Below, in pieces: positions 7,390-63,596 of a stretch of DNA of 64,000 bases (position 1 is the stretch's first letter; each line of letters begins with the position of its first letter). This DNA is from Vicinamibacterales bacterium (lineage in GTDB: Bacteria > Acidobacteriota > Vicinamibacteria > Vicinamibacterales > SCN-69-37). Below the pieces are notes generated by a model. That model searched no databases and was not told where the DNA came from. It worked only from the letters and a program-made list of their open reading frames with translations. The DNA lies in contig JBBQDM010000001.1 in assembly GCA_038319675.1 (NCBI GenBank), positions 166,457-230,456 of the forward strand, in the 5' to 3' direction. Both the position numbers and the translations under genes were made by a program.

Positions 7390-7474
7390 GGCGACGATCC
7401 TATCTGAACTTGAGCCCGACGGGCTGCAGGGGGATGGAGTCGGAGCCGAAAAGACGTGTCTGAGGTTCATCCCC

Positions 7475-9544: not shown

Positions 9545-10030
9545 GTGAACGGACTTGGTCTGGTGGCACTTCGGCTGATTCTCGCCGTTGTGTTCATCGC
9601 CCACGGCACACATAAGTTGTTCGGCCTCTGGGCCGGTCCCGCCATTGGCGTGGGTGGCCCCGAGGTCACCGCCCAGATGTTTGGCGCGATGGGCCTGGAA
9701 CCCAATTTTCCGATCGCCGTGTTTGTGGGCGCGCTTGAGATGCTGGGCGGAGTCTTGCTGGCCGTCGGTTGGTTCACCCGCGTGGTCGCGCCCACCCTGA
9801 TCGTCGTGTCGGCCGTCATGATCTGGAAGGCCCATTGGGCCTGGGGGTTCTTCATCAACTGGATCGGCACGCCCGACAGGGGCCAGGGCATGGAGATGCA
9901 CGTCCTGCTCATCGGTGCGCTGCTCTGCCTCTCCCTCACCGGGGCCGGGGAGTGGTCGATCGACGGCTCGCGGGAGAAGAGCGCGCAGGCGCGTGCGGCC
10001 GGCCGCGCCAGGCTGAGGGGTAAACTCTGA
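9545..10030 (+). CDS. DoxX-family membrane protein
   Basis: 161 aa with four hydrophobic helices. LRLILAVVFIAHGTHKLFG is typical of DoxX. GTG start with GGGGG 5 nt upstream. Confidence 0.75.
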   Translation: MNGLGLVALRLILAVVFIAHGTHKLFGLWAGPAIGVGGPEVTAQMFGAMGLEPNFPIAVFVGALEMLGGVLLAVGWFTRVVAPTLIVVSAVMIWKAHWAWGFFINWIGTPDRGQGMEMHVLLIGALLCLSLTGAGEWSIDGSREKSAQARAAGRARLRGKL

Positions 10031-10034
10031 CCGT

Positions 10035-10078
10035 GTGCACCTGAGCACGAGCGCACCAGAGCACCCGAGCACTTGACC
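10035..10078 (+). repeat. About 7-nt periodic G[A/C]ACC / GAGCAC array (array A, 6 units)
   Basis: gtGCACC tgaGCAC gagcGCACC agaGCACC cgaGCAC ttGACC. It lies between the DoxX stop (10030) and the SDR start (10081). Confidence 0.7.
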
Positions 10079-12539: not shown

Positions 12540-13718
12540 CTACAGGCTGGCGTCCATCGACTCGAGTGCGCCTTCGATTTCGGCCCTGTCCCTGGCGAAG
12601 CAGAAGCGCAGGTAGCCCTCGCCGCGTGCGCCGAAGTCCACGCCCGGCACCGAGCCGATGCGGGCCTTCTTGATCAGAAACTCCGTCATGGCCCAGGACT
12701 GCGACTCTGGTGCGTTGGGCAGCGGCGAGCGCCAGGCCGGATCAATCTGCACGAAGGCGTAAAACGCGCCGGAGGGCCTGACGCCCGTGAGCAATCCGTG
12801 TGACGCTTTCGGCAGCTTCTCGTAGAAGATGTCGCGTCGTGCGACGATCTCGCGCCGGAACTCTTCGATCACGTCCTGTGACCCTTCCAGCGCCCCGACG
12901 GCGCCGTACTGCACGAGTGACGACACGTTCGATGTGGAGCAGAACACGATCTTCTTCGCCCGGTCGCGAATGACGGGGTCTTTAATCGCGAGGTAGCCGA
13001 TACGCAGGCCTGTGATCGCGTAGGTTTTGCTGAGGGTGTAGAGCGGGATGGTCCGTTCGTAGAGCCCGGGCCACGACGCGATGCTGAGGTGTTCGCGACC
13101 ATCGAACAAGAAGTCCTCGTACGCTTCATCCGAGAACACCCAGAGGTTGCGCTCGGTCACCAGGGCCGCGAGAGCGTCGAGGTCTTCGCGCGTGAGCATG
13201 CCGCCGGTGGGGTTACACGGCGTGTTGAGCACGATGGCTTTGGTCTTGGGTGTGATGAGACGCTCGATCTCGTCGATGTCAGGCCGCCAGCCGCGTTCCT
13301 CGTACAGCGGATACGGCACCGCCACCGCCTGCGCGGCCATGATGTTGCTGACGGTGGGCGGCCACGCCGGATCCGGTAGCAACACTTCGTCGCCCGGCTC
13401 CAGCAGCGCGAGGCACGCGATGTACTGCGCGTGGATCCCGCCGTTGGTGACCATCACTTCCTCGGCCCCACCGATCGGAATGCCGTTTTTGGTGCGCATC
13501 TTCTCGACGAGCAGGTCCAGCAGCGGTGGGATGCCCGTTGTCTGCACATAGTGCGTGCGGTTGTCAGCGATGGCCTTGGTGAGGGCGTTTTTCACAGACG
13601 CGGGTGCGTCAAAGCTGACATCCCCCTGATCGAGGCGAAAAGGCTTGTCGACCGAGTACATCATGTCGCGAATACGAATGATGCCGGAGAAGGGAACCGC
13701 GTCAAGAAACTTGGCCAT
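12540..13718 (-). CDS. Class I/II PLP-dependent aminotransferase (aspartate aminotransferase-like)
   Basis: 392 aa. PLP-lysine motif YTLSKTYAITGLRIGY and NPCNPTG motif. Confidence 0.85.
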   Translation of the reverse strand: MAKFLDAVPFSGIIRIRDMMYSVDKPFRLDQGDVSFDAPASVKNALTKAIADNRTHYVQTTGIPPLLDLLVEKMRTKNGIPIGGAEEVMVTNGGIHAQYIACLALLEPGDEVLLPDPAWPPTVSNIMAAQAVAVPYPLYEERGWRPDIDEIERLITPKTKAIVLNTPCNPTGGMLTREDLDALAALVTERNLWVFSDEAYEDFLFDGREHLSIASWPGLYERTIPLYTLSKTYAITGLRIGYLAIKDPVIRDRAKKIVFCSTSNVSSLVQYGAVGALEGSQDVIEEFRREIVARRDIFYEKLPKASHGLLTGVRPSGAFYAFVQIDPAWRSPLPNAPESQSWAMTEFLIKKARIGSVPGVDFGARGEGYLRFCFARDRAEIEGALESMDASL

Positions 13719-21738: not shown

Positions 21739-21778
21739 GAGCACCCGCGCACGAGAGCACCGCTGCGCGTTAGCGCAC
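21739..21778 (+). repeat. About 7-nt periodic GAGCAC-type array (array B, 4-5 units)
   Basis: gaGCACC cgcGCAC gagaGCACC gctGCGC gttagcGCAC. It starts at the first base after the TAG of the HEAT-PPIase gene. Confidence 0.6.
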
Positions 21779-22816
21779 TGCGCTTTCCACCATCGCCACC
21801 GTGCCCGCGCCCGCATCGATCGTGACGCGTGCGCCGACCGGCAGAGTCCATTGCGCGTGGCCGTGGCCGATCATCGCACCGCTCCACGCGGGCACACCCA
21901 GAGGCGCGATGTGATCCGCGAAGATTTCTTCCGGTGTGAGCGAGGCGAAACCCGAGCCGGGTTCACATTCATTGCAGGTGCCGAAAACGAAGCCGCGAAT
22001 CTTCGGCAGGATGCCTGCGAGTGTGAGTGACGTCATCATGCGGTCGACGCGATACCACTGTTCGCCGACATCCTCGAGAAACAGAATCGCATCGTCGAAG
22101 TCGGGGACGTATGGGGAGCCGAGGATGGCCGTGAGCACCGTGAGGTTGCCACCAAGCAGGCGTCCGGTCGCCTGGCCGGGTGTGATTACACGCACGCGAT
22201 TTTCGACCTGGGTCAATACGTTGCGATCGGCAGTGGACTTCGGGTTCCCAAAGGTGACCGACTCACCCTGGAACAACACGCGGCGGACGTAGTCCACCGT
22301 GAATTCATCCCATCGGCCGCCGGCGTTTGGACCGTGGAACGTCACCAGGCCCGTGCGCGCGTGAATGCCGTTGAGTAACGCCGTGATGTCGCTGAACCCC
22401 ATCAGGATTTTCGGGTTGCGGCGGATCACGTCGTAGTCGAGCAGTGGCAGCAGTCGCGCCGTGCCCCATCCGCCGCGCGTTGGCAGGATCGCCTTGACCG
22501 TGGTGTCAGCAAAAAAGCGGTTGATATCGGCCGCGCGGTCCACATCCTGGCCGCCCAACGACCCGTGCCGATCACGAATGTGCTGGCCCATTTTGACCGT
22601 CAGACCCAGGGCTTCCAGCGATTCGCGGGCGATATCCACCTCGTCCTGCTGGTACATCGCCGTAGCCGGGGTGACCAGGCCCACGGTGTCACCTGGCTGC
22701 AGTCGAGCCGGCGTCAGAAGGCCGGGCGTCTGAACAGGTGTGCCCGTGAGCAACCGCGTGGAGGCGGGCATCAGCAGGGGGGCGGTGGCGGCAGCAAGAA
22801 AGGTGCGGCGATGCAT
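21770..22816 (-). CDS. LD-carboxypeptidase (S66, MccF/LdcA-like) with Tat-type signal
   Basis: ORF 21770..22846 trimmed to MHRRTFLAAATAPLLMPAS. Nucleophile motif GFSDITALLN. Confidence 0.8.
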   Translation of the reverse strand: MHRRTFLAAATAPLLMPASTRLLTGTPVQTPGLLTPARLQPGDTVGLVTPATAMYQQDEVDIARESLEALGLTVKMGQHIRDRHGSLGGQDVDRAADINRFFADTTVKAILPTRGGWGTARLLPLLDYDVIRRNPKILMGFSDITALLNGIHARTGLVTFHGPNAGGRWDEFTVDYVRRVLFQGESVTFGNPKSTADRNVLTQVENRVRVITPGQATGRLLGGNLTVLTAILGSPYVPDFDDAILFLEDVGEQWYRVDRMMTSLTLAGILPKIRGFVFGTCNECEPGSGFASLTPEEIFADHIAPLGVPAWSGAMIGHGHAQWTLPVGARVTIDAGAGTVAMVESAVR

Positions 22817-22844
22817 GACGCGTGAAAGAATAGACCGTATCCAC

Positions 22845-24032
22845 ATGACACGTCTCCCTCGGACTCGTCGGGTCGCCCTTGCGGCAGTGTTGTGCTGGTC
22901 ACTGGTGGCCGGCGCCTGTCAGGGCGAGTCGTCCGCTCCACCCCAGACCGGGTGGCTCAGCGCCGGTGACACCATCGCCCAGGGGGTCACCTTGTATACC
23001 TCCTCAGACTCCACCCTGCTCGATCCGCCGGCGCCGGTGCAGGTGTCGCTGCTGCGGCTTGATCCGCACCGGGTGCGCCTCACCAGCCTGCTGTCGCACG
23101 ATCAGGTGATGTTCGCGGAAACCGTGCTCGATGTGGCCGCCCGCGCTGGTGCGGTGGCCGCGGTCAACGCCGGCTTCTTCAACATCACCAACGGCGAGCC
23201 CGTCGGTCTGCTCAAAGTGGAGGGTGTGCTCGTCAGTGACACCCCGGTCACCAAAGGCGCCGTCGCCATCTGGTCTTCGTCGGACGCCGCCACCGAATTG
23301 GCGTTTGATCAGATCAGCGCGCGTGTCGATCTGCGCATCGGGGAGGGCGATGAGGCTGTGGCGTTTGCGGTGGACGGAGTGGACACCACACGCGCGCGTG
23401 GCCGATTGATGCTCTACACCCCGAAATATCACGAGCACACCGACACCGCCGGCAACGGCGTGGAGTGGGTGCTGCGTGGATCCCCGCTCAAGGTCGTGAG
23501 TTTGCGGTTCGACGCCGGCAGCACTCCGATCCCGGAGGATGGCTACGTGTTGTCGTACGGGGGCCTGGAACTGCCGCAGGAGTTGAAGCGGTTGTTGCCC
23601 GATACGTCCGTGACACTCGACACGCATTGGCGGACCGTCAACGGGCTGGATTCTTCACGTCTGGACACCGCCGACCACGTGGTGAATGGCGCCGGGTTGC
23701 TGCGGTATCGCGGCCGTCAGGTGACCGACTGGGAGAACGAGCGCCTCAGCCGCGCGAATTTTATTGAGGCCCGCCATCCGCGGACACTGATCGGGGTGGA
23801 TCGGCGCGGGGATATCTGGCTGGTGGTCGTGGACGGACGCCAGGCGCCGAGCGCAGGGATGGCATTCAGCGACCTGCAACGCCTCGCGGATCGGCTGCAA
23901 CTGACCGACGCGCTCAATCTTGATGGGGGCGGGTCCACCACGATGGTGGTGCAGGGCCGGGTGGTGAATCGCCCCTCGGATGCCAAGGGCCCACGCGCCG
24001 TGAGTGATGCCATCGGCGTCACGCTGCGGTAG
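22845..24032 (+). CDS. Phosphodiester glycosidase family (DUF2233) lipoprotein
   Basis: ORF trimmed to MTRLPRTRRVALAAVLCWSLVAGAC (lipobox). NLDGGGSTTMV motif. Confidence 0.75.
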   Translation: MTRLPRTRRVALAAVLCWSLVAGACQGESSAPPQTGWLSAGDTIAQGVTLYTSSDSTLLDPPAPVQVSLLRLDPHRVRLTSLLSHDQVMFAETVLDVAARAGAVAAVNAGFFNITNGEPVGLLKVEGVLVSDTPVTKGAVAIWSSSDAATELAFDQISARVDLRIGEGDEAVAFAVDGVDTTRARGRLMLYTPKYHEHTDTAGNGVEWVLRGSPLKVVSLRFDAGSTPIPEDGYVLSYGGLELPQELKRLLPDTSVTLDTHWRTVNGLDSSRLDTADHVVNGAGLLRYRGRQVTDWENERLSRANFIEARHPRTLIGVDRRGDIWLVVVDGRQAPSAGMAFSDLQRLADRLQLTDALNLDGGGSTTMVVQGRVVNRPSDAKGPRAVSDAIGVTLR

Positions 24033-40145: not shown

Positions 40146-40564
40146 TGTTTCTCCGGTTTGAGCCGCGTATCAAACGCCCGCACGTGTTTGGCGAGAGCCG
40201 TAATCTGCTCCGGCTTCAGCTTGCCCTTGAATGGCATCATCGGCGTACCTTTCACGCCCTCGGCAATGACCTTTGCCATCTGCACCGATGCCGTGCCGTG
40301 TTTCCAGTCGCGCCCCACAAAGGCCATTTCCGGCAACGGGGCCTTGCCGTTGGCGCCATGGCACACCTGGCAGTGCAACTTGTAGAGCGCGGCGGCATCA
40401 ATCTTCGGGGCCTGGGCACGGTGGATGGGGAGGTGAGGAGATGAGGAGATGAGGAGATGAGGAATGGGAATTGTGGTTGGCGCTGCTGCGCGCAGGGTCA
40501 TGGCCCCCGCCAGCGCGACAATTCCGAGACCTGTCACTACCATCCTGAAAACCACTGTAGACAT
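40142..40564 (-). CDS. Membrane-anchored/secreted mono-haem c-type cytochrome
   Basis: ORF 40142..40933 trimmed to [21 protein letters not shown] because the remainder is antisense to the giant gene. Haem motif CQVCH. Distal Met in GTPMMPF. Confidence 0.75.
40427..40466 (-). repeat. 8-nt tandem repeat (3 perfect and 2 degenerate copies of GAGGAGAT) inside the cytochrome c linker
   Basis: Perfect copies are at 40435-40458. On the coding strand this reads CCTCATCT x3 and encodes [11 protein letters not shown]. Confidence 0.8.
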
Positions 40565-40681: not shown

Positions 40682-43600
40682 ATGATGCAACTCCCCCCGG
40701 TAAGTGTGCAGTCCTCCGCTCGTGTACGCCCATTTGCCAGCCTGGTCGCCCTGTGCGGCGCCCTGTTCCTTAGTGCCGTATGGCCGTCGGCGCAATCTCC
40801 CGATCCGGGGCTGGGTCTGGTCGTTGGGCGGAACGTCAACATGGTGTCCGGGCAGACGCTGCCCGGTGGCGATCCCTACCTGCAGCGGCAGAACGAGCCC
40901 TCGGTGGCGGCCTCGACGCGAAACCCGCTGCACTTGTTGGCCGGGGCCAACGACTACCGGACCGTCGACATCCCTGGGAACTTCGATGATGGCGAGACGG
41001 GGGATGCGTGGCTCGGGGTGTTCAAATCTTTTGACGGTGGTGAGCGGTGGCAGAGCACGCTGTTGCCGGGCTACCCGCAGGACACCTCGCCGCAGGGCAT
41101 GGCATCGCCGCTGAAGGCGTATAGCGCGGGTGCTGACCCCGTGGTGCGTCCGGGCACCAACGGTCTGTTGTATTACGCGGGCCTCGCATTCAACCGCGGC
41201 GAAGGTGGCGCCAGCGCCATTTTTGTCTCGCGGTTTGTCGACAACAACAACAAGGAAAACGGCGACCCGATCGCGTACATCTCCACCTCGGTGGTGGCCA
41301 GTTCCACGGGTGCCGGGTTCCTCGACAAACCGTGGTTGGCCGTGGACGTACCACGCGCCGGGGCGACGGTGTGCCGCATCACGACCGAGGCGCCCACGCG
41401 TCAGGTCTCGGCCGCCGCACCATCATCCCCATCGACGGGTAAGGGGGCCAGCGGCGCGGCGGTGTCTGCAGCGGCCGGCACCATTAAGGAGACCCGCACG
41501 ACGAAGGGCACCCCCACGGTATTGCCGACACCCGGGATCGCGAAGCAGACCTCCATCACCCAGCAGGTGCTGGCCGGCGCGATGTATGTGGCCTACGCCC
41601 AGATCACCACCACGCACCTGGCGACGGGCGAGACCGACATCGAATCCCGGATTATGTTTTCGCGCTCGGATGACTGCGGCGTGACCTGGACGACGCCCGT
41701 GCGCATCAGCGACCCGTCGCACAAGGTGAATCAGGGTGCCACGATCGCCGTCGACCCTGCCACGGGTGTGGTGCATGTGGCGTGGCGGCAGTTCGGCCTC
41801 GATGACGCGTCCCCCGACGCGATCATGACCGTGGTCCCCACGGTGACGGCTGTGACGTCCGGACCCGGAAGGAATGCCCGGTCCACGCCCACCCAGCGAA
41901 AGCCCACAAAAGTGCACGAATTCAAGGCCGGTCCGAAGGCCGACGCGATTCGGCCCAAGCTCCAGCGCGCGCATCGGCACGGGGACGTGAACGAACTGGT
42001 GTCGATTCGCCCGTTTGACTCGGGCACGACGGAAGATCGCTTCCGCACCAACGCGTATCCCACCATCGCGATCGACGATGAGAGCCGCGTGTATCTGGCG
42101 TGGACAGAGCGGGGATTTGGTGGCGCCAGGTCTGATCCACTCATTGGTGACGCCCGCATCGTGCTGACGACGTCTCGTCAAGGTGGCTTCTGGACGACAC
42201 CACGCGCCGTGGATTCCCAGCCTGACGGCACGGATTTGCCCGGTCACCAGATGATGCCGTCGATGTCGTATTCGGGCGGTCGGTTGCTGCTTGTGTACTA
42301 CGACCTTCGTGAGGACGTCTCGCGCGTCTTCGGGCCGTTTGTGTCTGAGCGGGATGCGATCTCGCAGGGCCGGCGTCACACGATCGACGTGCGTGCCGTG
42401 CAGGCCACCAAGGGGGATGTGCCGGCGTTTGGTCCGTCCACGATGGTGTCGCAGTATCTGATCGGCAACCTGCGCGGCGCGGGTGGCATCGAGCCCCAGC
42501 AGTTGCAGTTCAACGCACCCAATCTGCCGCTGTTCCAGCTCGGCACGGTGCCCTTCATGGGCGACTATATCGACATCGCCCCGGCGCCGGCGTTTGTTCA
42601 GGACGCGGGCGGCCGGTGGATCCACAACACAGCCACCACGTCCGCGCCGGTGTTCCACGCCGTGTGGACCGACAATCGCGATGTCCGGAAGCCGATCGAT
42701 GGTGATTGGAAAAACTACACGCCGCCTGGCGGCGCCTCCTGCATCGACGGGCAGACGGGCATGCGCAACCAGAACGTGTACTCCGCGCGTCTGACGATGG
42801 GTCTCGTCGCCGGATCTCCTGGCAACTCGAAGCCACTCAGCACAGACACCCCGCGTGGGTTTGTCGTGTTCGCGCAGAATCTGACGTATCAGACAAAGGC
42901 GTTCCGCCTCACGATCGAGAATCAGCCCGTCGGTGGGAACGCGTCGTTCGCCCAGCTCGGCCTGGCCACCCCTGCTCCCCTGCTGCTTTCTGTCGACGTG
43001 AAGGTGGCTCCGCGGTCGATGGTGACCCGGACCGTCTATGCGACGTCCACCAACGCCAAAGATCAGGTGCGTGTCTCGGTGACTGAGGTCGGCGTGGCTG
43101 ACTTCCTCCCCATCGACGGGGGACTCGCGACAACGGTGATCCTCAATCCGGATATTTCAAACCCGGATATCTCGAACCCGGATATCTCGAACCCCGACAT
43201 CTCGAACCCGGATATCTCAAATCCGGATATCTCGAACGCCGAGGTCTACAACCCCGATATTTCCAATCCGGACATTTCCAATCCGGACATTTCGAACCCG
43301 GATATCTCGAACCCGGATATTTCCAATCCCGATATCTCGAACGTGCTCATTGCCAATCCGGATATCTCGAATCCTGACATTTCGAACCCGGATATCTCGA
43401 ATCCTGATATCTCCAACCCGGATATCTCGAATCCAGACATCTCCAACCCCGACATTTCGAACGGGTCCCTGACTGATGTGACGTGGACGATCCGGAACGG
43501 CGGCAACACGACCGCCGCGTTCAACGTGGACCTCTTTATCGCGAATCAGGCGGCCGCAGCTGGCGGTATCAAGACGCAACTGGTCGTGCACAAGACCTAC

Positions 43601-46600
43601 AAGACGCCGGTCTCCGACGGGTGTGTGCTGAAGACCGAGGCGCACACGGTGCTCGTGGCCAACGTGCTGAATCCCACGTTCAAGACGGTCGGCGACGATA
43701 CGACGTTTGATCCGGCGAACCCCGACATCTCGAACACGACGTTGTGGCTCGAACCCGGCGGCGAAGGGAAGATCACGCTGCGCATCGTGGACCCGGATCC
43801 AACCGATGCCTTCTCAATCAATCCAGTCACGGACGTGACGCCCGTGGTGCAGTCGCTGGCGGTGAACACCGAGACGCTCGCCGACCCGATGCCCGAACCG
43901 CCGGCCACACCGGCGCCGACTGACCCGCAGCCGGTGCCTGCGACGATGCTCACGTTTGTCGCGCAGCCTGTGGATACGCTGGCGGGCGGGCCAATGGCCC
44001 CGGTTACAGTGAGCGCCTTCGCTGGCCTCAACCCCGCGCCAGGCGTGCAGGTCACCCTCGCGATCGCGATCAATCCATCCGGGGGCAAGCTGTCAGGGAT
44101 CGTCACGACACTCACCGACGCTGCAGGCCTGGCGACGTTTGCCGGCTTGTCGATCGATCGCGATGGGGCCGGCTACCGGCTTTCAGCGTCTGCCAGCGCG
44201 GCCGGCGCGCTGCCGGTGCTGTCGAATGCCTTCGCAGTCGGCGTGGTGGCGCCGCCTCCGCCTCCGCCTCCGCCGGCCACGAACTGGTCTGCGAACGGCG
44301 ACGGCATCGTCGTGCTGACGGACAACGGGGCCGTCGGCGGCACGCCGCGCATGACCTATCAGCGCAACGGCATCCCCAACTTCACCGGCGCATGGACGTT
44401 GTCCACCGTCGCGGCGGCCACCGGACCGGTGCGGCTCGACTGGGAGTGGACCGGGCTGCACTCCTACTGTGCGGCTGGCGTCCAGCTCCAGTCCTTCGTC
44501 AACCGCGCAGGCAATGATGTCTTTGTGGGCCCGCTGCTGCAACTGACTGACAACTGTGTCGGCGCCCGCAACCCAAGCGCTGGCTTTGCATTCGCCGGCG
44601 TCACGTCGGTGGCGGTGCAGGCTGGCGACACCTACGGATTCCGGCTGAACGGAAGCCACGGTGATGGCAGCTACATCCTGGAGGGCGCCTTTGGCGCAGT
44701 CGTGAATGGCGCGACGTCGGCGAGTCCGTTTGTCGTGACCAACGCCTCGGACGGAGGTCCGGGTTCCCTGCGTGCGGCGCTGATCGAGGCGAACGTTGCG
44801 GCGGATCTGAACACGATCACCTTCGCCATCCCGGGACCGTGGCTGCACACCATTGCGCCAGCCACCCCACTGCCCGTGATCACGAACCCTGTGATCATCG
44901 ACGGTCTGTCGCAGCCGGGCTCGCTCTCGATGGCGCCGATGGTGAACCTCGATGGCCGGTTCATGCTGAATTTTGTCTCCGACAATAATGACGACCTGCC
45001 GGGAACAAACATCGGCCTGGCCCCTGGCTTTGAAGTGGTTGCGTCGGACGTGACCATTCGCGGTCTCGGCATCAACCGATTCCCGGGACCTGGCGTGTAT
45101 GTGAACAACGGCACGAACAACGTGCGCGTTGAAGACAACGCTATCGGTGCCGGACGTGCCGGTGTGCAGACGTGGCCCGCCAACAACGTTGGTGTCCACT
45201 TGAACTACAGCACCAATCACGTGATTGCGCGCAACGTGATTTCCTCGTCAGAGACATCCGGCATCTTGATCGCCGGTGGGTCGGGCTCGTTGATTACGGG
45301 AAACCGAATCGGCACGAGCGCGGACGGGCTGACGGCCCTGCCGAATCTTGACAACGGCATCACGCTGTTCGACGGTGCGACGGCAACGATCATCGACGGC
45401 AACCTGATCTCCGGCAACGGTACGGTCGGTGGCGCGAACGGCTTTGGCATCGACATCCAGCAGTCGGGTCTGCTGGCCGAGGTGACGGGCACGCTGATTC
45501 AAGGCAACACGATCGGCCTTGATGCTGCGGGGAACGTTCTGCGGCGGAGCGCGACCGATATCATCGGCCCCGCAAGTCAGGCGAATGAAAATCTCGGCCC
45601 GCTTGCGCGTGGTAATACCGGTGGCGGCATTCGACTCAACCGTGCGTCAGGCACGGTGATTGGTGGCGTGGCGGGATCGCCGAACACGATTTCTGGCAAC
45701 GGCGGCTATGGAATTGTGATCGTCGGCGCGCAGGCAGGAGCGGCGCCCCGCATCGTCGGTAACTACATCGGCACCGGTCCCACCGGAGCGGGAATCGCGG
45801 CCAATGTCGGGCGCGGGATCAGCGTGCAGGGGGCGGCCGCTGTCATCGGCGCCCCTGGAGTCGAGAACCGCAACATCATCTCCGGGAACCTCGGTGATGG
45901 CATCTTCTCGAACGGCAACACGGTGATCGAGAACAACTTTATCGGGACCGACAGCACCGGCACGATTGCACAGGGGAACGCGCGACTCGATGACTTCGGC
46001 CCAACGCTGACACTTGGCTGCTGTCATGTCGGCGTGTTTGTCACCGCGCCGAACAACGTCGTTCGCAACAACCTGGTGTCAGGGCAGGTGCGCGGGGGCG
46101 GTATCCGGAGTGGTGGCGCGCTCGGTGCCATCGCGAATCTGATTGAGAACAACAAGGTCGGGACCGACGTGACCGGCACCTTGCCGCTGCCCAATGGCGG
46201 TGGGATTGGCCTCTACGGGGATCGATCCGGAACTTGGGTGCGCGGCAACCTCATTGCCTTTAATCCCAATGGGGGAATTGGCATGTTCGAGGGCACGCAG
46301 GGTGCGCTGATCGGCGGTCTCGCTCCCGGGGACGGCAATACCATCGTCAACAACGGAGACGGTGTGCAGGTTGGCTACAACGCCGGACAACTGGCTGATC
46401 TGGGCAACCGAATCTGGTCGAACTCGATTTACAACAACCTGGGGCTTGGCATCGATCTGTCGAGGAACAGCGTGACCGTCAATGACGCCAATGACGGAGA
46501 TGTTGGGCCTAACGGGCAACAGAACTTCCCCGTGCTGAGCAATGTCACGAACAACGGTGTGGTCACCACCGTGGACTACCTGCTGGACAGCCAGCAGATC

Positions 46601-47445
46601 AACGCGAATCACACGATCCAGATTTTCGCGAGCGCGTCCTGCGATGCCAGTGGCTTTGGTGAGGGTGAACGATTGGTCGGGTCATTCATTCAGCAGAGCA
46701 ACGGCTCGGGCGACATGGTGGTCGTCGGAGCCGCACTCACCGAGATGGTGCCCGCAGGGCAGTTCCTGACCGCGACGGCGACCGACGGCAACGGCAATAC
46801 GTCGGAGTTCTCGCAGTGTGTGCAGGTCCAGGCCGGCGTCACGATTACGTCGGCATCCCCGGCGAACGGGGCACCGAACGAAGGCTTCATGGTGTTTCGC
46901 GGCGCGAACCTGCCAGCCGGCGTTGGCGATGTGGTCGCGGAGGTGTCCAACGGGGTCACGACGATGAACGGCTTCTGGTTCGCCAGTCCGTCGTCGCCGA
47001 CCGCAGGGTATGTGCGGTTACCCGGCATGCCGCTCGGGGCCGCCACCGTCCGGTTGCGCAACAACGCGGGCACCATCGTGTCGAACGCATTTCCAATCAC
47101 GATCACGGCCGTGCCTGGCACGCCGGTGATCACGGCGATTCGAGACGGCAACATGAACGTCGTGGCTACGCCGGTCCCGGCTGGCACTACGATCTACGTC
47201 GTGGCTGACGGTATCGACACTTTAGGAGCGGTGGTGCGCTTCACGCAGGGCGCCAATACGTGGGATGTCACTGGTATTGCAACGTCCAGCGCCGCCATCG
47301 GGCTGGCACTGGAAGTGAACCTGCCCGGTGTCGCCTCAGCCGGACCGATTGATGTGAGCATCCGCCAGGGCGCGAGTAACTTCAGTGCCACGGTGACGAT
47401 TCAAGTGGCGGCAGCGCCGACGGTCTCCGGTCCGACGGGTACTCG

Positions 47446-47449
<4 letters not shown>
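40682..47449 (+). CDS. Giant secreted multidomain protein: BNR/sialidase-like propeller, PDISN pentapeptide array, Ig-like domain, CSLREA-type parallel beta-helix, IPT/TIG-like C-terminus
   Basis: 2255 aa. Signal peptide ending PSAQS. Asp-box motifs SFDGGERW (41027-41050) and SDDCGVTW (41666-41689). NPDIS array. P8 linker (about 44254-44277). GGPGSLRAALIEAN then many NxxIxGN beta-helix turns. TATATDGNGNTSEFS. Two C-terminal beta-sandwich modules. Confidence 0.85.
43145..43459 (+). repeat. 21 in-frame 15-nt units; 19 encode NPDIS, plus NAEVY (unit 7) and NVLIA (unit 14)
   Basis: Read directly. The units differ only at synonymous third positions (aat/aac, ccg/ccc/cct/cca, gat/gac, att/atc, tca/tcg/tcc). 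An orphan copy lies at 43718-43732. Confidence 0.95.
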
Positions 47450-57241: not shown

Positions 57242-57838
57242 CTACTCCAACCCCAGCTTGGTCAACACCTCGGGCGGGCAACCGGTCCACTTGGGCACGA
57301 AGGTGTTGCCCATGTACTGGATGTCGTTGATGCCCATCTCGCTGGTCCAGAAGCCGCTGGCCGTGAGGTCGCGGAAGCTGTTGAAAAACGTGACGCCGGG
57401 GTTCATGCCCTCGACTGTCCGACGCGGCCACGAGATGTCGTCGAGCACCTGACGCCGCTCGGCATCGGTGCACACGATGAACCGTTTGTCGAAGCGACGA
57501 TGGCATTCGAGGTCGAGCCAGGCAAGCCCGCCGCGCATGGCGTTCTGCCGATTCGGCTGGTCGGTCATCATGAAATCCATGAACTGCGGCACGCCCGCCT
57601 CCGACGCGCTGCCGGACCGCTCGTCCTTCGGAATGATGTAGTCCACCAGCACGGTCACTGTCTGATATTCGTGCGCGGTGAAAAACACGGGCGTGAACGC
57701 GGTTTGCCCCGCCTGTGCCTGCGCGGCTTTGACGGCGTTGCCGGCAAACACCGCCTCTTCGTGTGTCCACGTAAACGCCGCCGCCATCGGCGCGGCCGCC
57801 ATCAGGCGCAACAACGAGCGTCGATCCATGGTTGCCAT
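57242..57838 (-). CDS. Gluconate 2-dehydrogenase subunit 3-family small subunit with Tat signal
   Basis: 198 aa. MATMDRRSLLRLMAAAPMAAAFT. The ATG overlaps the stop of the GMC gene (TGATG). Confidence 0.7.
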   Translation of the reverse strand: MATMDRRSLLRLMAAAPMAAAFTWTHEEAVFAGNAVKAAQAQAGQTAFTPVFFTAHEYQTVTVLVDYIIPKDERSGSASEAGVPQFMDFMMTDQPNRQNAMRGGLAWLDLECHRRFDKRFIVCTDAERRQVLDDISWPRRTVEGMNPGVTFFNSFRDLTASGFWTSEMGINDIQYMGNTFVPKWTGCPPEVLTKLGLE

Positions 57839-59550
57839 CAGAGTGCTCCCCGGTTGCGTTCAGACACGATGAAATCGCTGGTGCGCCACGAGAGCGCAAG
57901 AATGGTCCACGTCGGGTTTTTGTCAGGCTGCGAGACGAACGGACCGCCGTCAGTGACAAACAGATTCTTGACGTCGTGCGCCTGGCAGTTGCTGTTGAGC
58001 ACCGAGGTCTTCGGGTCGTTACCCATGCGCGTGACGCCCAATTCGTGAATGATGGAGCCCCCGGTGGAGATGCCGTAGCCGCGCTCGCGCGACGGCATCG
58101 TGCCCATCGTTGTGCCGCCCATCTCGTCGACGATGGCGCGGAACGTGTCCTGCATGTGTTTGGCCTGGTTGTACTCGTGGTCGGTCCACCGCCAGTGGAA
58201 CCGCAACACCGGAATGCCGAACTTGTCGATCGTGTTCGGATCGATCTCGCAGTAGCTGCCTTCGTTCGGAATCATCTCGCCGCGGCCCATGAACGTCACT
58301 GTTGACCCGTAGAAGCGCCGGTAGTCGTCCTTCAAGGTGGTGCCGTAGCCGCCAATCTCGCGGCCGCTGTCGTAGCCGGTGAAGCGCTGAATGTTGCCGC
58401 CGAAGCCGGCGTTGGGCATGTTGCGACCGCCGCCGATCTCGGTGTGATACCCGCGCGGGAAGTCGAGCTTTCTGTTGTCGAGCACCCACGGCATGTAGAG
58501 GTGCGCGCCGCCGACGCCGTCCTCGTTGTGCGGAATCTGATCCATCAGCTTCGGGATGAACGCCGTGACGCTCGCGCCGGTGGAGTCGGTGATGTATTTG
58601 CCAACCACGCCCGACGAGTTGCCGACGCCCTGCGGAAACTGCGTGTTCTTTGAGTTGAGCATGATGCGCGCTGATTCACACGCACTTGCGGCCAACACCA
58701 CGATGCGGGCCGACACGTGATTCTCCTGGCCGGTTGTTTTGTCGATGTAGGCCACACCTGTCGCAAGCCCCTGCGCGTTGACGGTGACTTCACGCGCCAT
58801 CGCCTGCGTGATGATCGTCAGGTTGCCTGACGCAATCGCCGGGCGCAGCAGCACCGAGGGCGACGAGAAGTTTGAGTGCGTCGCACATCCACGCGAACAC
58901 TGGCCACAGTAGTGACACGCCGCGCGACCGTTGAGCGGCTGCGTGAGGATCGACAGCCGCGACGGGATGCACTTGATGTTGAGGTTGTCGGACGCGTTCT
59001 TGACCAACCGCTCCCAGCACCGCGGCTCGGGTGGCGGCTGAAAGATGCCGTCGGGTTCGTTGGGAAGGTTTTCAACGGTGCCGAACCGGCCGACGAACCT
59101 GTCCACGCGGTCGTAATACGGCTTGATGTCGTCAAACGTGATCGGCCAGTCGTCGCCGAGCCCATCCAGGCTCTTGCGCCGGAAGTCGTCGGGACCAAAC
59201 GCCAGCGAAATGCGGCCCCAGTGATTCGTGCGGCCGCCCAGCATGCGCGTTCTGAACCACTGGAAACTTGAGCCCTGCCCGGTCGTGTACGGCTCGCCAT
59301 CAATCTGGAAGCCGCCAATCCACGCACCGAACTCGCCCCACGGGCGCTCCGGCGTGCCGCCACCTCGTCGAGGCGAGTCGTACGGCCACGCGAACATCTT
59401 CGGATCCGTCTCCGGGTCCCAGTTCACGCCCGCCTCCAGCATCACGACCTTCGCACCGGCCTCGGTCAGCACCTTGGCGGCCATGCCGCCCCCGGCGCCG
59501 GACCCTACGATGCAGACATCAAATGTTTCGCGGCTTCGGATGATTTGCAC
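57838..59550 (-). CDS. GMC-family FAD-dependent oxidoreductase (large subunit)
   Basis: 570 aa. DVCIVGSGAGGGMAAKVLTEAGAKVVMLEAG (GxGxxG). C-terminal HELGVTRMG ... VTDGGPF. GTG start. Confidence 0.85.
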   Translation of the reverse strand: MQIIRSRETFDVCIVGSGAGGGMAAKVLTEAGAKVVMLEAGVNWDPETDPKMFAWPYDSPRRGGGTPERPWGEFGAWIGGFQIDGEPYTTGQGSSFQWFRTRMLGGRTNHWGRISLAFGPDDFRRKSLDGLGDDWPITFDDIKPYYDRVDRFVGRFGTVENLPNEPDGIFQPPPEPRCWERLVKNASDNLNIKCIPSRLSILTQPLNGRAACHYCGQCSRGCATHSNFSSPSVLLRPAIASGNLTIITQAMAREVTVNAQGLATGVAYIDKTTGQENHVSARIVVLAASACESARIMLNSKNTQFPQGVGNSSGVVGKYITDSTGASVTAFIPKLMDQIPHNEDGVGGAHLYMPWVLDNRKLDFPRGYHTEIGGGRNMPNAGFGGNIQRFTGYDSGREIGGYGTTLKDDYRRFYGSTVTFMGRGEMIPNEGSYCEIDPNTIDKFGIPVLRFHWRWTDHEYNQAKHMQDTFRAIVDEMGGTTMGTMPSRERGYGISTGGSIIHELGVTRMGNDPKTSVLNSNCQAHDVKNLFVTDGGPFVSQPDKNPTWTILALSWRTSDFIVSERNRGAL

Positions 59551-59573: not shown

Positions 59574-59643
59574 GTGCACCAAGAACCCTGCACCCAGGAA
59601 CCACGAACAGCACCCGGAACCATGAACCGATGAACCATGAACC
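59574..59643 (+). repeat. About 7-nt periodic G[A/C]ACC array (array C, 10 units)
   Basis: gtGCACC aaGAACC ctGCACC cagGAACC acGAAC aGCACC cgGAACC atGAACC gatGAACC atGAACC. It sits in the divergent region between the GMC gene and the DUF1080 gene. The last unit supplies the candidate ATG 59637. Confidence 0.85.
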
Positions 59644-60638
59644 GTCAACGCCGAGTTACCATACGACTCATGCGCATCCTCCTCTCGGCCTGTCTTCTTG
59701 CGGTGGCTTCCATGACTTCAGGCGTGTCGGCCCAGCCCAACCCGTTCCTGGGCACCTGGAACATGACGGGGACGGGCGACGATTCGGGGTTTGTGTACTG
59801 GCTGAAGGTGGAGCAGGGGGCGGATGGGCTCACGGGTCGGTTTTTGAATCGCGCTGGCAGTCCTGGCAGCCTCGGCGTCGTCAAGGTCGAAGGCGGGGAG
59901 TTGATCTTTCAGTCCGGCCGGGCCGACAACCTGACGGGGCCTGAATACCGCGCACGTCTTGAAGGCGAGCGATTGGTTGGCCGGCACACGTTGCGCAGTG
60001 GCGGGCGGGGCGGAAATCCTGTGACCGAGCGCGTCGTGAATTGGGTTGGTGTGCGCACACCTGCGTGGCCGGTGGTTGATGCCAACGCCGAACACAAATA
60101 CGGCACACCGGTGGTGCTGTTTGACGCCTCCACTACTTCGATGGATGCGTGGGGCGTGCAACACGCCGCCCGACCCATGAACTGGTCTGTGGAAAACGGC
60201 ATGATGGTGAACGTCAAGAGCGCGAACAACCTCGTGTCGAAACAGACGTTCAGCGACTTCAAGCTCGAGGCCGAGTACCGCCTCACCGAGGGCAGCAACA
60301 GCGGCATCTACCTGCGCGGTCGGTACGAAATGCAGGTGTTTGACGATGCCGGCAAGGACACGGCCATCACGGGGCACATGTCAATCTATGGGCGGAAGGC
60401 CCCCGATGTGAACGCCAGCCTGCCTCCAGGCGAGTGGCAGAAAGTCGAGATCGTTTTGATCGGCAACCGCGTGACAGTCACCCTCAACGGCACCCGGATT
60501 CATGACAACGCCGTGATCGAAGGCATTACCGGTGGTGCGCTCGACAACAACGAGCTCGCGCCAGGTCCGATCATGATCCAGGGTGATCACTCCGTCGCCG
60601 CGTTCCGCAAGGTCGTCGTCACACCGATCGTTAAGTAG
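59637..60638 (+). CDS. Secreted DUF1080 (3-keto-disaccharide hydrolase family) protein with an extra N-terminal domain; start 59637 or 59670
   Basis: 333 aa. Signal MRILLSACLLAVASMTSGVSAQ. C-terminal FSDFKLEAEYRL ... NSGIYLRGRYEMQVFDD ... IMIQGDH. Confidence 0.8.
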   Translation: MNRQRRVTIRLMRILLSACLLAVASMTSGVSAQPNPFLGTWNMTGTGDDSGFVYWLKVEQGADGLTGRFLNRAGSPGSLGVVKVEGGELIFQSGRADNLTGPEYRARLEGERLVGRHTLRSGGRGGNPVTERVVNWVGVRTPAWPVVDANAEHKYGTPVVLFDASTTSMDAWGVQHAARPMNWSVENGMMVNVKSANNLVSKQTFSDFKLEAEYRLTEGSNSGIYLRGRYEMQVFDDAGKDTAITGHMSIYGRKAPDVNASLPPGEWQKVEIVLIGNRVTVTLNGTRIHDNAVIEGITGGALDNNELAPGPIMIQGDHSVAAFRKVVVTPIVK

Positions 60639-60652
60639 AAGAAAGACGTCGG

Positions 60653-61834
60653 GTGTCGGCTCCGCTTTTTACCGCGCGCTTCTTCGTCATGTGCGCGTAC
60701 ACCTTCACGGTGTTCATCTCGCTGTTTCAGCTGTTGCCGGCGGCGCCGTATCACGTGCTCGCGCTCGGCGGCACGACGTTTGCCGGCGGGTTGTTCCTCG
60801 GATTCCTCACGTATTCGTCGGCGTTGTCTGCGCCGGTTACCGGGCAACTCGCTGACCGTGTCGGCCATCGCCGTGTGCTGATTGTCGTGAGCCTCGCGCT
60901 GGCGGCGTTTGCTTCGCTGTACGCGGTGATCGAAAACTATCGCCTCCTGCTGGCGCTTGTGTTCGTGCACGGCCTGTTCTGGTCCGCGCTACTCTCGGCG
61001 TCCGGGGCGTACATCACGTCGATCATTCCTGATGGTCGGCGCGCCGAGGGCCTTGGATACTGGGGACTCTCGTCCGTGCTCGCATTGGCTGTGGCACCAC
61101 CACTCGGCTTTTGGGTGTTTTCGTTCGGATGGAAGGCCCTGTGCTTCGAAATCGCGGCGCTTAATCTGCTGATGGCATTTATCGCGTGGCGATTACCGGA
61201 AGAAGCATCCGAGCACAAGAGCACCCGAGCCCGCTCGCGCCTTGCTATCGAATGGCCCGTGATGGCCCTGTCAGTGTCGATGGCGCTGATTGCATTCGGG
61301 TACGGCGGCTTGACGACGTTTTCGGCGCTGTTTGCAGACGAGCTGCAGGTGACTCCGCGCAGTCTGTTTCTGACGTCGATGGCGGTGGCGATGCTGGTGG
61401 GACGACTGGCAATCGGACGAATGCTCGACCGCATCGGGCACCGTGTGGTTTTGCTCCCCTGTCTGCTCATCACGGCTGCGGGCATGGCCCTCTTCGCGGC
61501 GGCGCAGGGGCGGCTCACGTTTGTGCTTGCGGCAGTGGCTTTTGGTTCGGGCTTCGGCTTGCTGTATCCCACGTACAGCGCGTACATCATGGGCCGCATC
61601 CCGCCGTGGCGGCGCGGCGCGGCGTTTGGTGCGATGCTCGCGGCCTTTGATCTGGGGATCGGCAGCGGCTCTACGGGCCTTGGCTGGCTGATTCACCAGT
61701 TCGGATTCCGACCAGCCTTCGGTATCGCCGCAGGCCTCGCATTCCTGGCTGTTCCGTATTTCCTCCTGATGGAAAAACGACTGGGCTTCGACCAGCACCC
61801 GAGCACTGGAGCACCCGAGCACGTGAGCACTTGA
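60653..61834 (+). CDS. MFS transporter (12 TM, YfcJ-like)
   Basis: 393 aa with 12 hydrophobic segments. GTG start. The central loop and C-terminal tail are encoded by GAGCAC-type repeat DNA. Confidence 0.75.
   Translation: MSAPLFTARFFVMCAYTFTVFISLFQLLPAAPYHVLALGGTTFAGGLFLGFLTYSSALSAPVTGQLADRVGHRRVLIVVSLALAAFASLYAVIENYRLLLALVFVHGLFWSALLSASGAYITSIIPDGRRAEGLGYWGLSSVLALAVAPPLGFWVFSFGWKALCFEIAALNLLMAFIAWRLPEEASEHKSTRARSRLAIEWPVMALSVSMALIAFGYGGLTTFSALFADELQVTPRSLFLTSMAVAMLVGRLAIGRMLDRIGHRVVLLPCLLITAAGMALFAAAQGRLTFVLAAVAFGSGFGLLYPTYSAYIMGRIPPWRRGAAFGAMLAAFDLGIGSGSTGLGWLIHQFGFRPAFGIAAGLAFLAVPYFLLMEKRLGFDQHPSTGAPEHVST
61209..61232 (+). repeat. GAGCAC-type repeat units (array E, 3 units) inside the MFS central loop
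   Basis: ccGAGCAC aagaGCACC cGAGCCC encodes SEHKSTRA. It shares the 13-mer AGAGCACCCGAGC with array A. Confidence 0.6.
61793..61834 (+). repeat. GAGCAC-type array (array D, 5 units) forming the last 14 codons and the stop of the MFS gene
   Basis: caGCACC cGAGCAC tggaGCACC cGAGCAC gtGAGCAC TTGA. It encodes HPSTGAPEHVST*. Confidence 0.75.
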
Positions 61835-61868: not shown

Positions 61869-63596
61869 ATGAATATCCGACTTCGCTCCACCACCATTCT
61901 CGCCACTGCGTTGCTTGTCACCGTGGCCGCTGTGGCCCACGTCACCACCCAGACTCAGAAACCGCCGTCGCCGGCAGACCTTGTGCTCCGCAACGGGCGA
62001 GTTGTGACGGTTGACGATGCCAGGCCGACGGCACAGGCGATTGCCGTCAATGGCGACACGATCGTGGCGGTGGGGTCCGATGCGGAGATTGGCCGCTACA
62101 TCGGGCCCAATACGCAGGTGATCGACCTTGCCGGACAGATGGCGATGCCGGGTTTTGTCGAAGGGCACGCGCACTTCACCGGCATCGGCCAGGCGAAACT
62201 GGGCCTCGAGCTCATGGAGACCGAGAGCTGGGAAGAGATCATCGGCATGGTGCGCGATGCGGTGGCGAAAGCGCGGCCGGGTCAGTGGATCGTCGGTCGT
62301 GGCTGGCACCAGGAAAAGTGGTCGTCGGTGCCGCAGCCGAACGTGGCGGGTTTCCCCCTGCACACGGCGTTGTCGGCAGTGTCGCCCAACAATCCTGTGG
62401 TGCTGACGCACGCCAGCGGTCACGCGTCGTTTGCCAACGCCAAGGCGATGGAGCTGTCGAACATCACGGGGACCACCGCGGCACCTGCCGGCGGCGAAAT
62501 TCTCAAGGACTCGGCAGGTAATCCCACGGGGCTCTTGAACGAAACGGCGATGGGCCTTGTGCGCCGCGGTGCGGGCGAGCCGCCTCCCACAGCAGAAGAG
62601 CGCGAGGCCGAGGCCATGCGTGTGATTGAGCTGGCCGACCAGGAGATTTTGTCGAAGGGTGTCACGAGTTTCCAGGACGCCGGTTCGAGTTTCACGGACG
62701 TCGAGCGATTCAAGCGTGCCATCGACGAGGGGCGTCTGAAGTCGCGACTGTGGGTGATGATTCGCGGCGGCGGCACTCCGGAGCAGCTGTCGCGCGGACG
62801 CCTGATCGACTACGGCAACAAACATCTGACGGTGCGCGCGATCAAAATTTCCGTGGACGGCGCGCTCGGCTCACGAGGTGCGTGGCTGCTCGCGCCGTAC
62901 TCCGACCTTGTCGAAAGCTCAGGTCTCGGTCGCGATCTCGCACCTGTCAGAACGACAGCACAGCTGGCCATCGACCACGGCTATCAGCTATGCCTGCATG
63001 CCATCGGCGACCGCGCCAACCGTGAAGTGCTGGACGTGTTTGAGGAAGCGTTCGTCAAGAACAACCGCAACGGCAAGGATCTGCGGTGGCGTGTGGAACA
63101 TGCGCAGCACATCCATCGCGATGATATTCCGCGGTTCGGCCAGCTTGGTGTGATCGCAGCGATGCAGGGCGTTCACGCCACATCCGATGCGCCGTACGTG
63201 GTGGCGCGCCTCGGTGCCGAGCGCGCCGAAGAAGGTGCGTATGTCTGGAAGAAATTGCTCGACAGCGGTGCCGTTATCGCCAATGGCACCGACGCGCCGG
63301 TGGAAAACGTCGATCCGATTTCGAGTTATTACGCCACAGTGACGCGCATGACCGCGGCCGGCACTGAATTTTTTCCGGCCCAGAAGCTCTCGCGCATCGA
63401 TGGCCTGAAGTCCTACACGTTGTGGGCCGCCTACGCCGCCTTCGAGGAAGACAGCAAAGGCTCACTCACCCCAGGCAAACTCGCCGACATCACCGTGCTG
63501 TCCAAGGACATCACGACGGTGCCGGACGCCGAGATTCGCGACGCCAAGGTGCTGTACACGATTGTCGGGGGCAAAATCGCCTACAAGGGACAGTAA
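61869..63596 (+). CDS. Secreted amidohydrolase-3 (YtcJ-like) metal-dependent hydrolase; start uncertain (61839/61848/61869)
   Basis: MNIRLRSTTILATALLVTVAAVAHV signal. PGFVEGHAHF (HxH). Later HAIGD and NGTDAPVE motifs. Confidence 0.8.
   Translation: MNIRLRSTTILATALLVTVAAVAHVTTQTQKPPSPADLVLRNGRVVTVDDARPTAQAIAVNGDTIVAVGSDAEIGRYIGPNTQVIDLAGQMAMPGFVEGHAHFTGIGQAKLGLELMETESWEEIIGMVRDAVAKARPGQWIVGRGWHQEKWSSVPQPNVAGFPLHTALSAVSPNNPVVLTHASGHASFANAKAMELSNITGTTAAPAGGEILKDSAGNPTGLLNETAMGLVRRGAGEPPPTAEEREAEAMRVIELADQEILSKGVTSFQDAGSSFTDVERFKRAIDEGRLKSRLWVMIRGGGTPEQLSRGRLIDYGNKHLTVRAIKISVDGALGSRGAWLLAPYSDLVESSGLGRDLAPVRTTAQLAIDHGYQLCLHAIGDRANREVLDVFEEAFVKNNRNGKDLRWRVEHAQHIHRDDIPRFGQLGVIAAMQGVHATSDAPYVVARLGAERAEEGAYVWKKLLDSGAVIANGTDAPVENVDPISSYYATVTRMTAAGTEFFPAQKLSRIDGLKSYTLWAAYAAFEEDSKGSLTPGKLADITVLSKDITTVPDAEIRDAKVLYTIVGGKIAYKGQ

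Follow-up and report, generated by a model that had tools for sequence, protein, structure and literature searches.

An oriented family of GAGCAC tandem repeats in a Vicinamibacterales genome and its turnover at orthologous sites

Introduction

What keeps very short tandem repeats beside bacterial genes: recognition by a protein, or replication errors that do little harm where they fall? The question is raised by five tracts, labelled arrays A to E, on the + strand of a 64,000-nucleotide (nt) stretch of DNA from a Vicinamibacterales bacterium (GenBank assembly GCA_038319675.1, contig JBBQDM010000001.1, positions 166,457 to 230,456). This whole 64-kb stretch is referred to as the window. An earlier reading made from the sequence alone had described a dispersed family of arrays with a period of about 7 nt, all in the same orientation and at gene boundaries, and had offered slippage-prone repeats, Rho-utilisation tracts or an array of binding sites as possible roles.

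It was found that the tracts are a non-random one-strand family of very short tandem repeats, with a G[A/C]ACC heptamer relative in array C. The arrays at one site differ by whole units and come and go between relatives, and the same motifs are seen both in direct arrays and in inverted pairs of arrays that make up a long hairpin. From these comparisons, the family looks like a further example of the poorly understood short tandem repeats of bacteria and not like a conserved regulator.

The array family in the window

All five tracts were found where the sequence-only reading had placed them, and its claim that they are on the + strand is correct for each. Array A (10035..10078) consists of five 8-nt units, GTGCACCT GAGCACGA GCGCACCA GAGCACCC GAGCACTT. 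Array B (21739..21778) has three good units, GAGCACCC GCGCACGA GAGCACCG, followed by a degenerate 3' tail. Array D (61204..61232) has two to three units, AGCATCCG AGCACAAG AGCACCCG AGCC, and array E (61793..61834) has five, CAGCACCC GAGCACTG GAGCACCC GAGCACGT GAGCACTT, followed by GA. The main unit is therefore the octamer GAGCACNN, i.e. G-A-G-C-A-C-N-N, and A, B, D and E share one register.

The period of about 7 nt had to be corrected to 8 for these four arrays, with 21739-21762 as the periodic part of B; only array C is approximately 7-periodic. Tandem Repeats Finder called period 8 for A, D and E, and when periods of 5 to 12 were scanned, chains of three or more GCAC units appeared at period 8 only and on the + strand only. 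A repeat search put A, B, D and E into a single family (D3), which C did not join. Array E also has a 16-nt superperiod that matches better than period 8 (90% compared with 76%), and we take this to mean that blocks of two units were duplicated in it.

The dispersed, same-orientation character of the family stands up to shuffled controls. The pattern GCAC-N4-GCAC-N4-GCAC has 7 matches against 0.07 expected from shuffles, all of them on the + strand and within arrays A, B and E. Identities of 13-15 nt had been reported between arrays, and they are real: the 12-mer GAGCACCCGAGC occurs in 3 exact copies and 2 copies with one mismatch against 0.79 expected, only in A, B, D and E. The tracts were also correctly described as C-rich with few T, as they contain 36-46% C, 0-10% T and 20-33% G, with C/G ratios of 1.2-1.9 over lengths of 24-70 nt.

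Array C (59574..59643) has ten G[A/C]ACC units (3 GCACC, 6 GAACC and 1 GAACA) with spacings of 7, 7, 8, 7, 5, 7, 7, 8 and 7. The ten units claimed upstream of the DUF1080 gene are thus nine perfect ones and one GAACA. The 7-periodic G[A/C]ACC pattern has 2 exact matches in the window, both in array C, and with at most one mismatch it has 3 matches against 0.07 expected.

Core and spacer within the units

We aligned 43 units from the window and from three loci of relatives (L120, L122 and L127; L numbers denote loci throughout). GCAC at positions 3-6 is invariant over these units, but the same positions served to find the arrays. Positions 1 and 2, which were unused in finding them, are G in 84% and A in 88% of the units, while positions 7 and 8 are nearly random (0.33 and 0.11 bits).

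Two candidate explanations for the unit sequence were rejected. A likeness of GAGCACCT to the 3' end of 16S ribosomal RNA (GAUCACCUCC) was dropped, as the last two unit positions are free. Stop codons in three frames were considered as a selected feature, and only units ending in T give them, which are not enriched. In addition, no skew of GAGCAC like that of Chi or uptake sequences was seen outside the arrays, where the + and - strands have 31 and 29 copies, respectively.

Turnover at orthologous sites

Syntenic loci were taken from Acidobacteriota, Vicinamibacterales-like relatives with 72-93% protein identity, and the closest named proteins are from Acidobacteriota/Vicinamibacterales. For the MFS transporter gene that carries D and E, the identity to the window is 93% in L120/L121, 89% in L122, 81% in L123, 78% in L124 and L125, and 72% in L126. 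For the SDR gene downstream of A it is 87% in L127/L128 and 74% in L129, and for the LD-carboxypeptidase gene next to B it is 91% in L228. The sequence-only reading had named absence or lack of conservation at other loci as grounds for refutation, and the outcome was mixed: D and E recur, A does so as a 2-unit seed, and no direct array was found again for B or C.

At site A the number of units is 5 in the window, 2 in L127, 2 in L128 and 0 in L129. At site D there are about 3 units in the window, 5 in L120/L121 and 10 in L122; among the more distant relatives, L124 has four units with a period of 10-11 nt and L125 has six, five of them with a period of 12 nt. The array at site E has 6 units in L120/L121 and 5 in L122, and in both cases it begins at the TAG stop of the MFS gene and is hence intergenic. 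The MFS stop was lost in the window and the array is translated. No array is present at site E in L123, L124 and L126, where the spacers are short. In L125 the site is occupied by a palindrome of about 110 nt, (GGTGCTC..)n/(..GAGCACC)n, with an 11-12 nt period and a folding energy of -79 kcal/mol (z = -9.7).

In the alignment of the MFS proteins, the central loop (D) and the C-terminus (E) are the sole hypervariable parts. They are rich in EH, ST and AP strings, the peptides that GAGCACNN gives when read in its three frames. In phase-variation (contingency) repeats, changes in unit number turn a gene on or off through a frame shift or altered promoter spacing, and very close strains differ. 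The pattern here is another one: the coding arrays D and E are in frame in all relatives, and the arrays of L120 and L121, two samples of one population, are identical.

The array at site B is absent in L228. In this locus a MacB/FtsX permease gene (5085-7511) lies between the LD-carboxypeptidase and cyclophilin genes, at the site of array B.

At site C the repeat was found only in L122, as a near-perfect palindrome of about 125 nt made of GGTTC/GAACC heptamers (-95.9 kcal/mol, z = -13.4), of which the window retains the right arm only. Array C is absent at the same site in L120/L121, L123, L124 and L125, which have unrelated hairpins or an extra gene instead. In L120/L121 a 282-aa open reading frame (ORF; L120 8079-8927) lies between the GMC oxidoreductase and DUF1080 genes, at the array C site. 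The gene content thus differs exactly at sites B and C, and the arrays may mark rearrangement junctions. In L124 (8735-8860) and L125 (8735-8850), the GMC/DUF1080 region has a different long inverted repeat, GGATTTACAGGGAGACACGGAG ... CTGTGTCTCCCTGTAAATCC, and no GAACC array. Each lineage seems to have filled this spacer with its own hairpin or repeat. The next spacer, between the DUF1080 and MFS genes, is 14 nt long in the window compared with 115-150 nt in L124 (9885-10000) and L125 (9850-10000); the expansion is AT-rich, self-complementary and of low complexity, with AATCG/CGATT-like units.

The sequence-only reading had stated that the tracts contain no inverted repeats. This is true of A, B and E, but C has a 9-bp hairpin and the relatives have fully palindromic versions.

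Some further arrays were noted in the relatives. On the - strand of L129 (18460-18524), GCACC heptamer arrays run antisense to the genes where a peptidase M49 gene meets the ORF that follows it. Read on the coding strand, they give a VLGAECSVLVRCWVLGCLVLGALTLSAQ (VLGA...) segment that resembles a signal peptide. L125 has (CCTTTGG)4.6 at 13108-13139 and (GAACCCT)5.3 at 13197-13233, both at a convergent amidohydrolase/DUF349 junction, and the GAACCCT unit equals one unit of array C. The same locus has an array of the TGCCTCAT type with periods of 8, 16 and 24 nt at 3797-3864.

Gene context and signals

Genes in the window were assigned from Pfam. On the + strand these are DoxX (9545-10030, stop at 10028-10030), SDR (10081-10821), HEAT/cyclophilin (19543-21738, TAG at 21736-21738), DUF1080/3-keto-disaccharide hydrolase (59670-60638, ATG at 59670), the MFS transporter (60653-61834) and an amidohydrolase with two in-frame ATGs (61848 or 61869 to 63596). 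LD-carboxypeptidase (21770-22846, stop at 21770-21772) and GMC oxidoreductase (57838-59550, start at 59550) are on the - strand.

Array A takes up the 50-nt spacer between the DoxX stop and the SDR ATG, and array B begins on the base that follows the HEAT/cyclophilin TAG, both as had been claimed; the tail of B overlaps the stop of the convergent LD-carboxypeptidase gene. Array C sits between the divergent GMC oxidoreductase and DUF1080 genes. The description "at gene boundaries" is too simple for D and E. Array D is part of the MFS coding sequence and encodes ...EHKSTRA... in the central cytoplasmic loop, and array E is the final 14 MFS codons (QHPSTGAPEHVST) plus the TGA stop. In every array the C-rich strand is the sense strand of the adjoining gene.

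Array A is 6 nt upstream of the SDR ATG, and array E ends 13 nt before the first amidohydrolase ATG. No Shine-Dalgarno (SD)-like motif was found before the start codons downstream of arrays in the window. The MFS start, which has no array, also has no SD-like motif, and so the absence of SD motifs may be general in this genome. A and E lie in forward orientation close to SD-less starts, with E overlapping the end of the upstream ORF; B and D do not have this layout, and for C it is uncertain.

No RNA structure beyond that of shuffled controls was found in A, B and E (z = -0.5, -0.9 and +0.35, respectively). The first 28 nt of array C (from 59570) form the 9-bp hairpin, with z = -2.6, and both A and C open with the palindromic hexamer GTGCAC. 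The whole window has 0 matches to Rfam 15 at the gathering score. Scans for sigma-70 promoters and intrinsic terminators around the arrays gave weak matches only, none of them tied to an array. On inspection, a reading of C as an ECF-sigma -35 element (GGAAC) was also set aside, the spacing to any -10-like element appearing unsuitable.

Directly upstream of the DUF1080 ATG there is a motif GTTACCAT(A/T)(C/A)C (59655-59669), which is kept in all relatives, with array C or without it (L120 8970-8983, L122 8978-8991, and just before the DUF1080 ATG in L124/L125). The TACCAT in this motif could be a -10-like element. If so, the DUF1080 mRNA would have almost no leader, and the promoter would be downstream of array C.

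GAGCAC arrays in other lineages

Three GAGCACNN units were searched for in a collection of 185,579 species' genomes, and at least 119 loci were obtained. The matches listed are from Actinomycetota, Acidobacteriota, Bacteroidota (down to 32% G+C), Planctomycetota, Elusimicrobiota, Omnitrophota, Pseudomonadota, Gemmatimonadota and others; among them, Bacillota are represented by one Metamycoplasmataceae metagenome-assembled genome (MAG) only and Cyanobacteria by none. Most of the listed matches are perfect octamer repeats, with up to 13 units, and the loci concerned also hold many unrelated period-7 and period-8 arrays. In viral contigs, GAGCAC gave 13 loci compared with 9, 38 and 47 for control hexamers of the same composition, two of which partly overlap in that they hit the same (GACCAGCA)n array. 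With these controls and the unrelated arrays, the idea of GAGCACNN as a universal bacterial element was rejected. Octamer arrays are common and have many different sequences, and in the sense relevant here the GAGCAC family is specific to its lineage.

The orientation of these arrays was counted with crude, ORF-based gene calls over many phyla mixed together, and an earlier version of the same ORF caller missed one real gene of the window, so that the counts are suggestive only. Among the matches listed, sense arrays outnumber antisense ones by 19 to 2 within 60 nt of a gene start, and by 27 to 14 between co-directional genes (p = 0.06); and convergent gene pairs host 19 arrays compared with 8 for divergent pairs.

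Two of these genomes deserve a separate description. In a Vicinamibacterales MAG (L018), GAGCACC[CT] arrays at 3356-3385 (-) and 3956-4010 (+) lie 600 bp apart. By the same crude calls each is sense to its neighbour, one running over the stop of a 132-aa gene and the other lying 11 nt before a 608-aa gene. In the Bacteroidales MAG CAYVJA01 (L009, L031, L044, L073, L074, L095 and L117) and in L037, with about 50% G+C, (GAGCACTA)n arrays are present on at least 7 contigs. They usually have a GC mini-hairpin GCGCGAAGCGC ahead of them, with (TCACCAT)n heptamers and inverted GTGCTC copies alongside, and the set looks like a composite intergenic repeat system.

Discussion

The explanation that we favour, with about even confidence, is that replication slippage generates the arrays and alters their length, that template switching now and then gives the palindromic forms, and that selection leaves only the harmless orientation and positions. 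Arrays would survive only where they do little harm, that is, after stops, in short spacers before starts and in frame within disordered protein segments, with the C-rich strand as the mRNA sense. In the sense orientation the units would be read as a linker rich in E/H/S/T/A/P, while the antisense orientation would put GTG starts into leaders and V/L/C-rich peptide into loops. A present-day effect on spacing, or through an unstructured leader, would be a by-product.

Several results are consistent with this. The family is non-random, and the differences in unit number at orthologous sites, together with the duplicated superunit in E, are what the slippage-prone repeats suggested by the sequence-only reading would give. 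D and E are confined to the hypervariable MFS regions, and the antisense array of L129 as well as an unrelated array in a cytochrome c linker, described below, are also translated. Unrelated period-7 and period-8 arrays are common, the core is not universally special, and no Rfam match, no promoter or terminator signal tied to the arrays and no RNA structure in A, B or E was found. On this reading the arrays are not required for control of the neighbouring genes, because relatives have the same operons without them.

Other results weigh against slippage as the full account. Slippage itself is deduced from the unit-number differences and not observed, and L120 and L121, which are two metagenome samples of one population, have identical arrays, with no sign of short-term hypermutability. 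The orientation sample is small, as the sense-only rule comes from four or five arrays, two of them within one gene. Conservation is also uneven inside the units, with the core kept and the spacer free, which argues against pure slippage because neutral decay should blur every position alike. In the relatives, GAGCACC is kept at periods of 10-12 nt and in palindromic form, and this survival of the core at other periods points to constraint on, or recognition of, the GAGCAC motif itself. As judged from the aligned units, the contrast between core and spacer is the chief argument against a purely neutral history of slippage.

This contrast and the position before SD-less starts leave room for the main rival, which we consider a tentative possibility and in which the arrays act in cis on the mRNA. 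Rows of GAGCAC sites at 8-nt spacing would be bound by a putative oligomeric or multi-domain single-strand RNA-binding protein; candidates include a TRAP/HutP-like ring, cold-shock proteins, ribosomal protein S1 and the 30S subunit. In TRAP-type protein-binding arrays a triplet is followed by a spacer of 2-3 nt. The arrays here have a conserved 6-nt core, a free spacer of fixed length (2 nt) and several such units in a row, and so resemble the TRAP/HutP type in layout only. A and E are sense, unstructured and 6 and 13 nt before SD-less starts, and E is kept in three lineages with all cores intact and differing spacers. The sense excess near gene starts (19 to 2) and between co-directional genes (27 to 14, p = 0.06) in the at least 119 loci goes in the same direction, but these counts come from crude gene calls across many phyla. 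Binding would set the translation or stability of the gene after the stop codon, as MacGregor proposed for the TAACTGA repeats of Beggiatoaceae, which share the forward orientation, the place before starts, the lack of a ribosome-binding site (RBS) and the occasional overlap with an upstream ORF (PMC4679880).

The binding-site array of the sequence-only reading is made conceivable by the conserved core and free spacer, but the distribution of the arrays speaks against it. The same operons in relatives of 72-87% identity have no arrays or only 2 units, so that the targets are not conserved. Array B comes after the final gene at a convergent gene end, D is coding, and C may be upstream of a promoter and outside the mRNA. 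The SD-less MFS gene has no array, so the lack of SD motifs may be general in this genome, and the binding protein is purely hypothetical.

A bolder version, which we consider rather doubtful, is that recognition, and not copying, keeps the GAGCAC core. The arrays would be mRNA or single-stranded DNA landing pads for a hypothetical oligomeric protein of Vicinamibacteria, with one GAGCAC per subunit at 8-nt spacing, forming a fluid genome-wide post-transcriptional network in which the palindromes are an "off" or sequestered state; or a sequence-specific DNA-processing enzyme would write both arrays and palindromes.

It is also conceivable, although unlikely, that the direct arrays are decayed halves of palindromic elements with GAGCAC or GAACC arms, similar to repetitive extragenic palindromic (REP) sequences or miniature inverted-repeat transposable elements. 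The complete hairpin may then be a terminator or RNA-stability element, or may be moved by an enzyme. The palindromes of L122 at site C (about 125 nt, z = -13.4) and of L125 at site E (about 110 nt, z = -9.7) suggest such an origin, as do the GTGCAC at the opening of A and C, the 9-bp hairpin that C keeps, and the inverted array pairs in other phyla (L049, L069, L081, L094, L073 and L074). The excess of convergent over divergent hosts (19 to 8 in the at least 119 loci) is the usual REP-like placement. However, site E has direct arrays in the close relatives L120 and L122, and nothing resembling a second arm accompanies the 2-unit seeds at site A. A hairpin element is also out of the question for the arrays of the MFS loop. 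Near the arrays, neither a transposase nor a RAYT-like gene was seen, though no search was aimed at one. The data fit a change from palindrome to half as well as one from array to palindrome, and an origin from half-palindromes is compatible with both slippage and binding arrays.

The Rho-utilisation (rut) sites proposed earlier appear very improbable. C-rich unstructured RNA after a stop would load Rho and cause polarity or termination, and it is true that every tract has more C than G (C/G 1.2-1.9) and little T, that A, B and E begin at or right after stop codons, and that B is at a convergent gene end without an intrinsic terminator. But rut sites are usually at least 60-80 nt long and G-poor, and the tracts here measure only 24-70 nt and contain 20-33% G. 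Moreover, the next start codon follows A and E after 6-13 nt, apparently in the same operon, D and E are translated, and the orthologous operons have no arrays. Double-stranded, iteron- or operator-like sites for a transcription factor or nucleoid protein are scarcely credible: the core is conserved, C is in a divergent promoter region and similar Geobacter metallireducens quartets are annotated as putative global-regulator sites (PMC2700814), but the 8-bp period is out of phase with the DNA helix, and the strict single-strand orientation, the post-stop and coding positions and the loss from orthologous promoters do not suit such sites.

Comparison with known repeat families

The sequence-only reading had placed the tracts nearer to the heptamers of cyanobacteria than to REP hairpins. 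The cyanobacterial short tandemly repeated repetitive (STRR) heptamers, together with prokaryotic long simple-sequence repeats with units of 5-11 nt, are dispersed, largely intergenic and lineage-specific, and their function is unexplained. The window arrays resemble the STRR in having tandem units of about 7 nt and in being dispersed, largely intergenic and lineage-specific. They differ in that four of the five arrays are 8-nt, the host is acidobacterial, the copy number is 3-10, and the units are a core with a variable spacer and not exact copies. No exact head-to-tail 7-nt unit was found, the nearest being the approximately 7-periodic C. The units GAGCACNN and G[A/C]ACC are presumably unlike those of the STRR.

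Like REP sequences and bacterial interspersed mosaic elements, the arrays are short, dispersed and intergenic with a preference for gene 3' ends, and hairpin versions exist at the same sites in relatives. Unlike these, A, B and E are direct repeats without a significant fold. A stable hairpin of the REP kind was not found in the window but is present in L122 (-95.9 kcal/mol) and L125 (-79 kcal/mol). The preference for STRR over REP therefore holds within the window, but the contrast fails in the relatives, with palindromes of 110-125 nt at the same loci.

There is a likeness in placement to TAACTGA repeats, which are known from marine Beggiatoaceae and also from some Cyanobacteria and Bacteroidetes (MacGregor 2015, PMC4679880). 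In that paper, 169 heptamer sets are described in Beggiatoaceae, mostly forward, just upstream of starts without an RBS and in some cases over ORF ends, and S1, Csp or CsrA are proposed as binders (PMC4679880). Both families consist of dispersed sets of 2-6 or more tandem 7-8 nt units, mostly intergenic and with one preferred orientation toward the start; the downstream genes are often without an RBS, and a few sets are inside ORFs. They differ in that the window family has GAGCACNN with a free 2-nt spacer instead of an exact heptamer, and belongs to another phylum; the TAACTGA unit is present in none of the five window tracts. Gain, loss, resizing and palindromic variants at orthologous sites are seen for the window family, while such comparisons are not reported for TAACTGA in the available text.

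In Geobacter metallireducens, tandem quartets form two families (PMC2700814): GGACCGG heptamers, in 49 elements that lie within and between genes, and GTTGCTYN octamers, at 48 sites. The window arrays are similar in having about four tandem 7-8 nt units between and within genes, in families with tens of copies per genome, and the Geobacter octamer also has a degenerate last position. In contrast, the Geobacter octamers are paired on opposite strands and are read as regulator sites, and the sequences differ. Heptamer repeats are also present in Xanthomonas and Nostoc (PMC4692102). Function is not demonstrated for the TAACTGA, Geobacter and Xanthomonas/Nostoc repeats (PMC4679880, PMC2700814, PMC4692102).

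The present family thus adds an acidobacterial member to the 7-8 nt repeats of cyanobacteria, Beggiatoaceae, Geobacter and Xanthomonas, which have been known for decades and are all without an accepted function. Its orthologous-site series shows fast gain, resizing, inversion into hairpins and absorption into proteins, and the conserved core beside a free spacer provides GAGCAC as a concrete handle for a binding experiment. If a binder exists, there would be a testable route to the function of such repeat families; if not, the family would be a tidy case in which repeat turnover is tolerated and gives rise to disordered stretches of protein as well.

Other repeats in the window

A further period-8 array, (GATGAGGA)5, is present at 40424-40463 with a 90% match, and its unit is unrelated to GAGCAC. 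On the - strand it is in frame in a small cytochrome c gene (CQVCH), where it lies in the linker just after the signal peptide. At 43144-43462 a coding repeat of the pentapeptide type has about 21 copies of a 15-nt unit (CCGGATATCTCGAAC, roughly NPDIS) and a superperiod of 60 nt, and it lies within an ORF of 2255 aa at 40682-47449.

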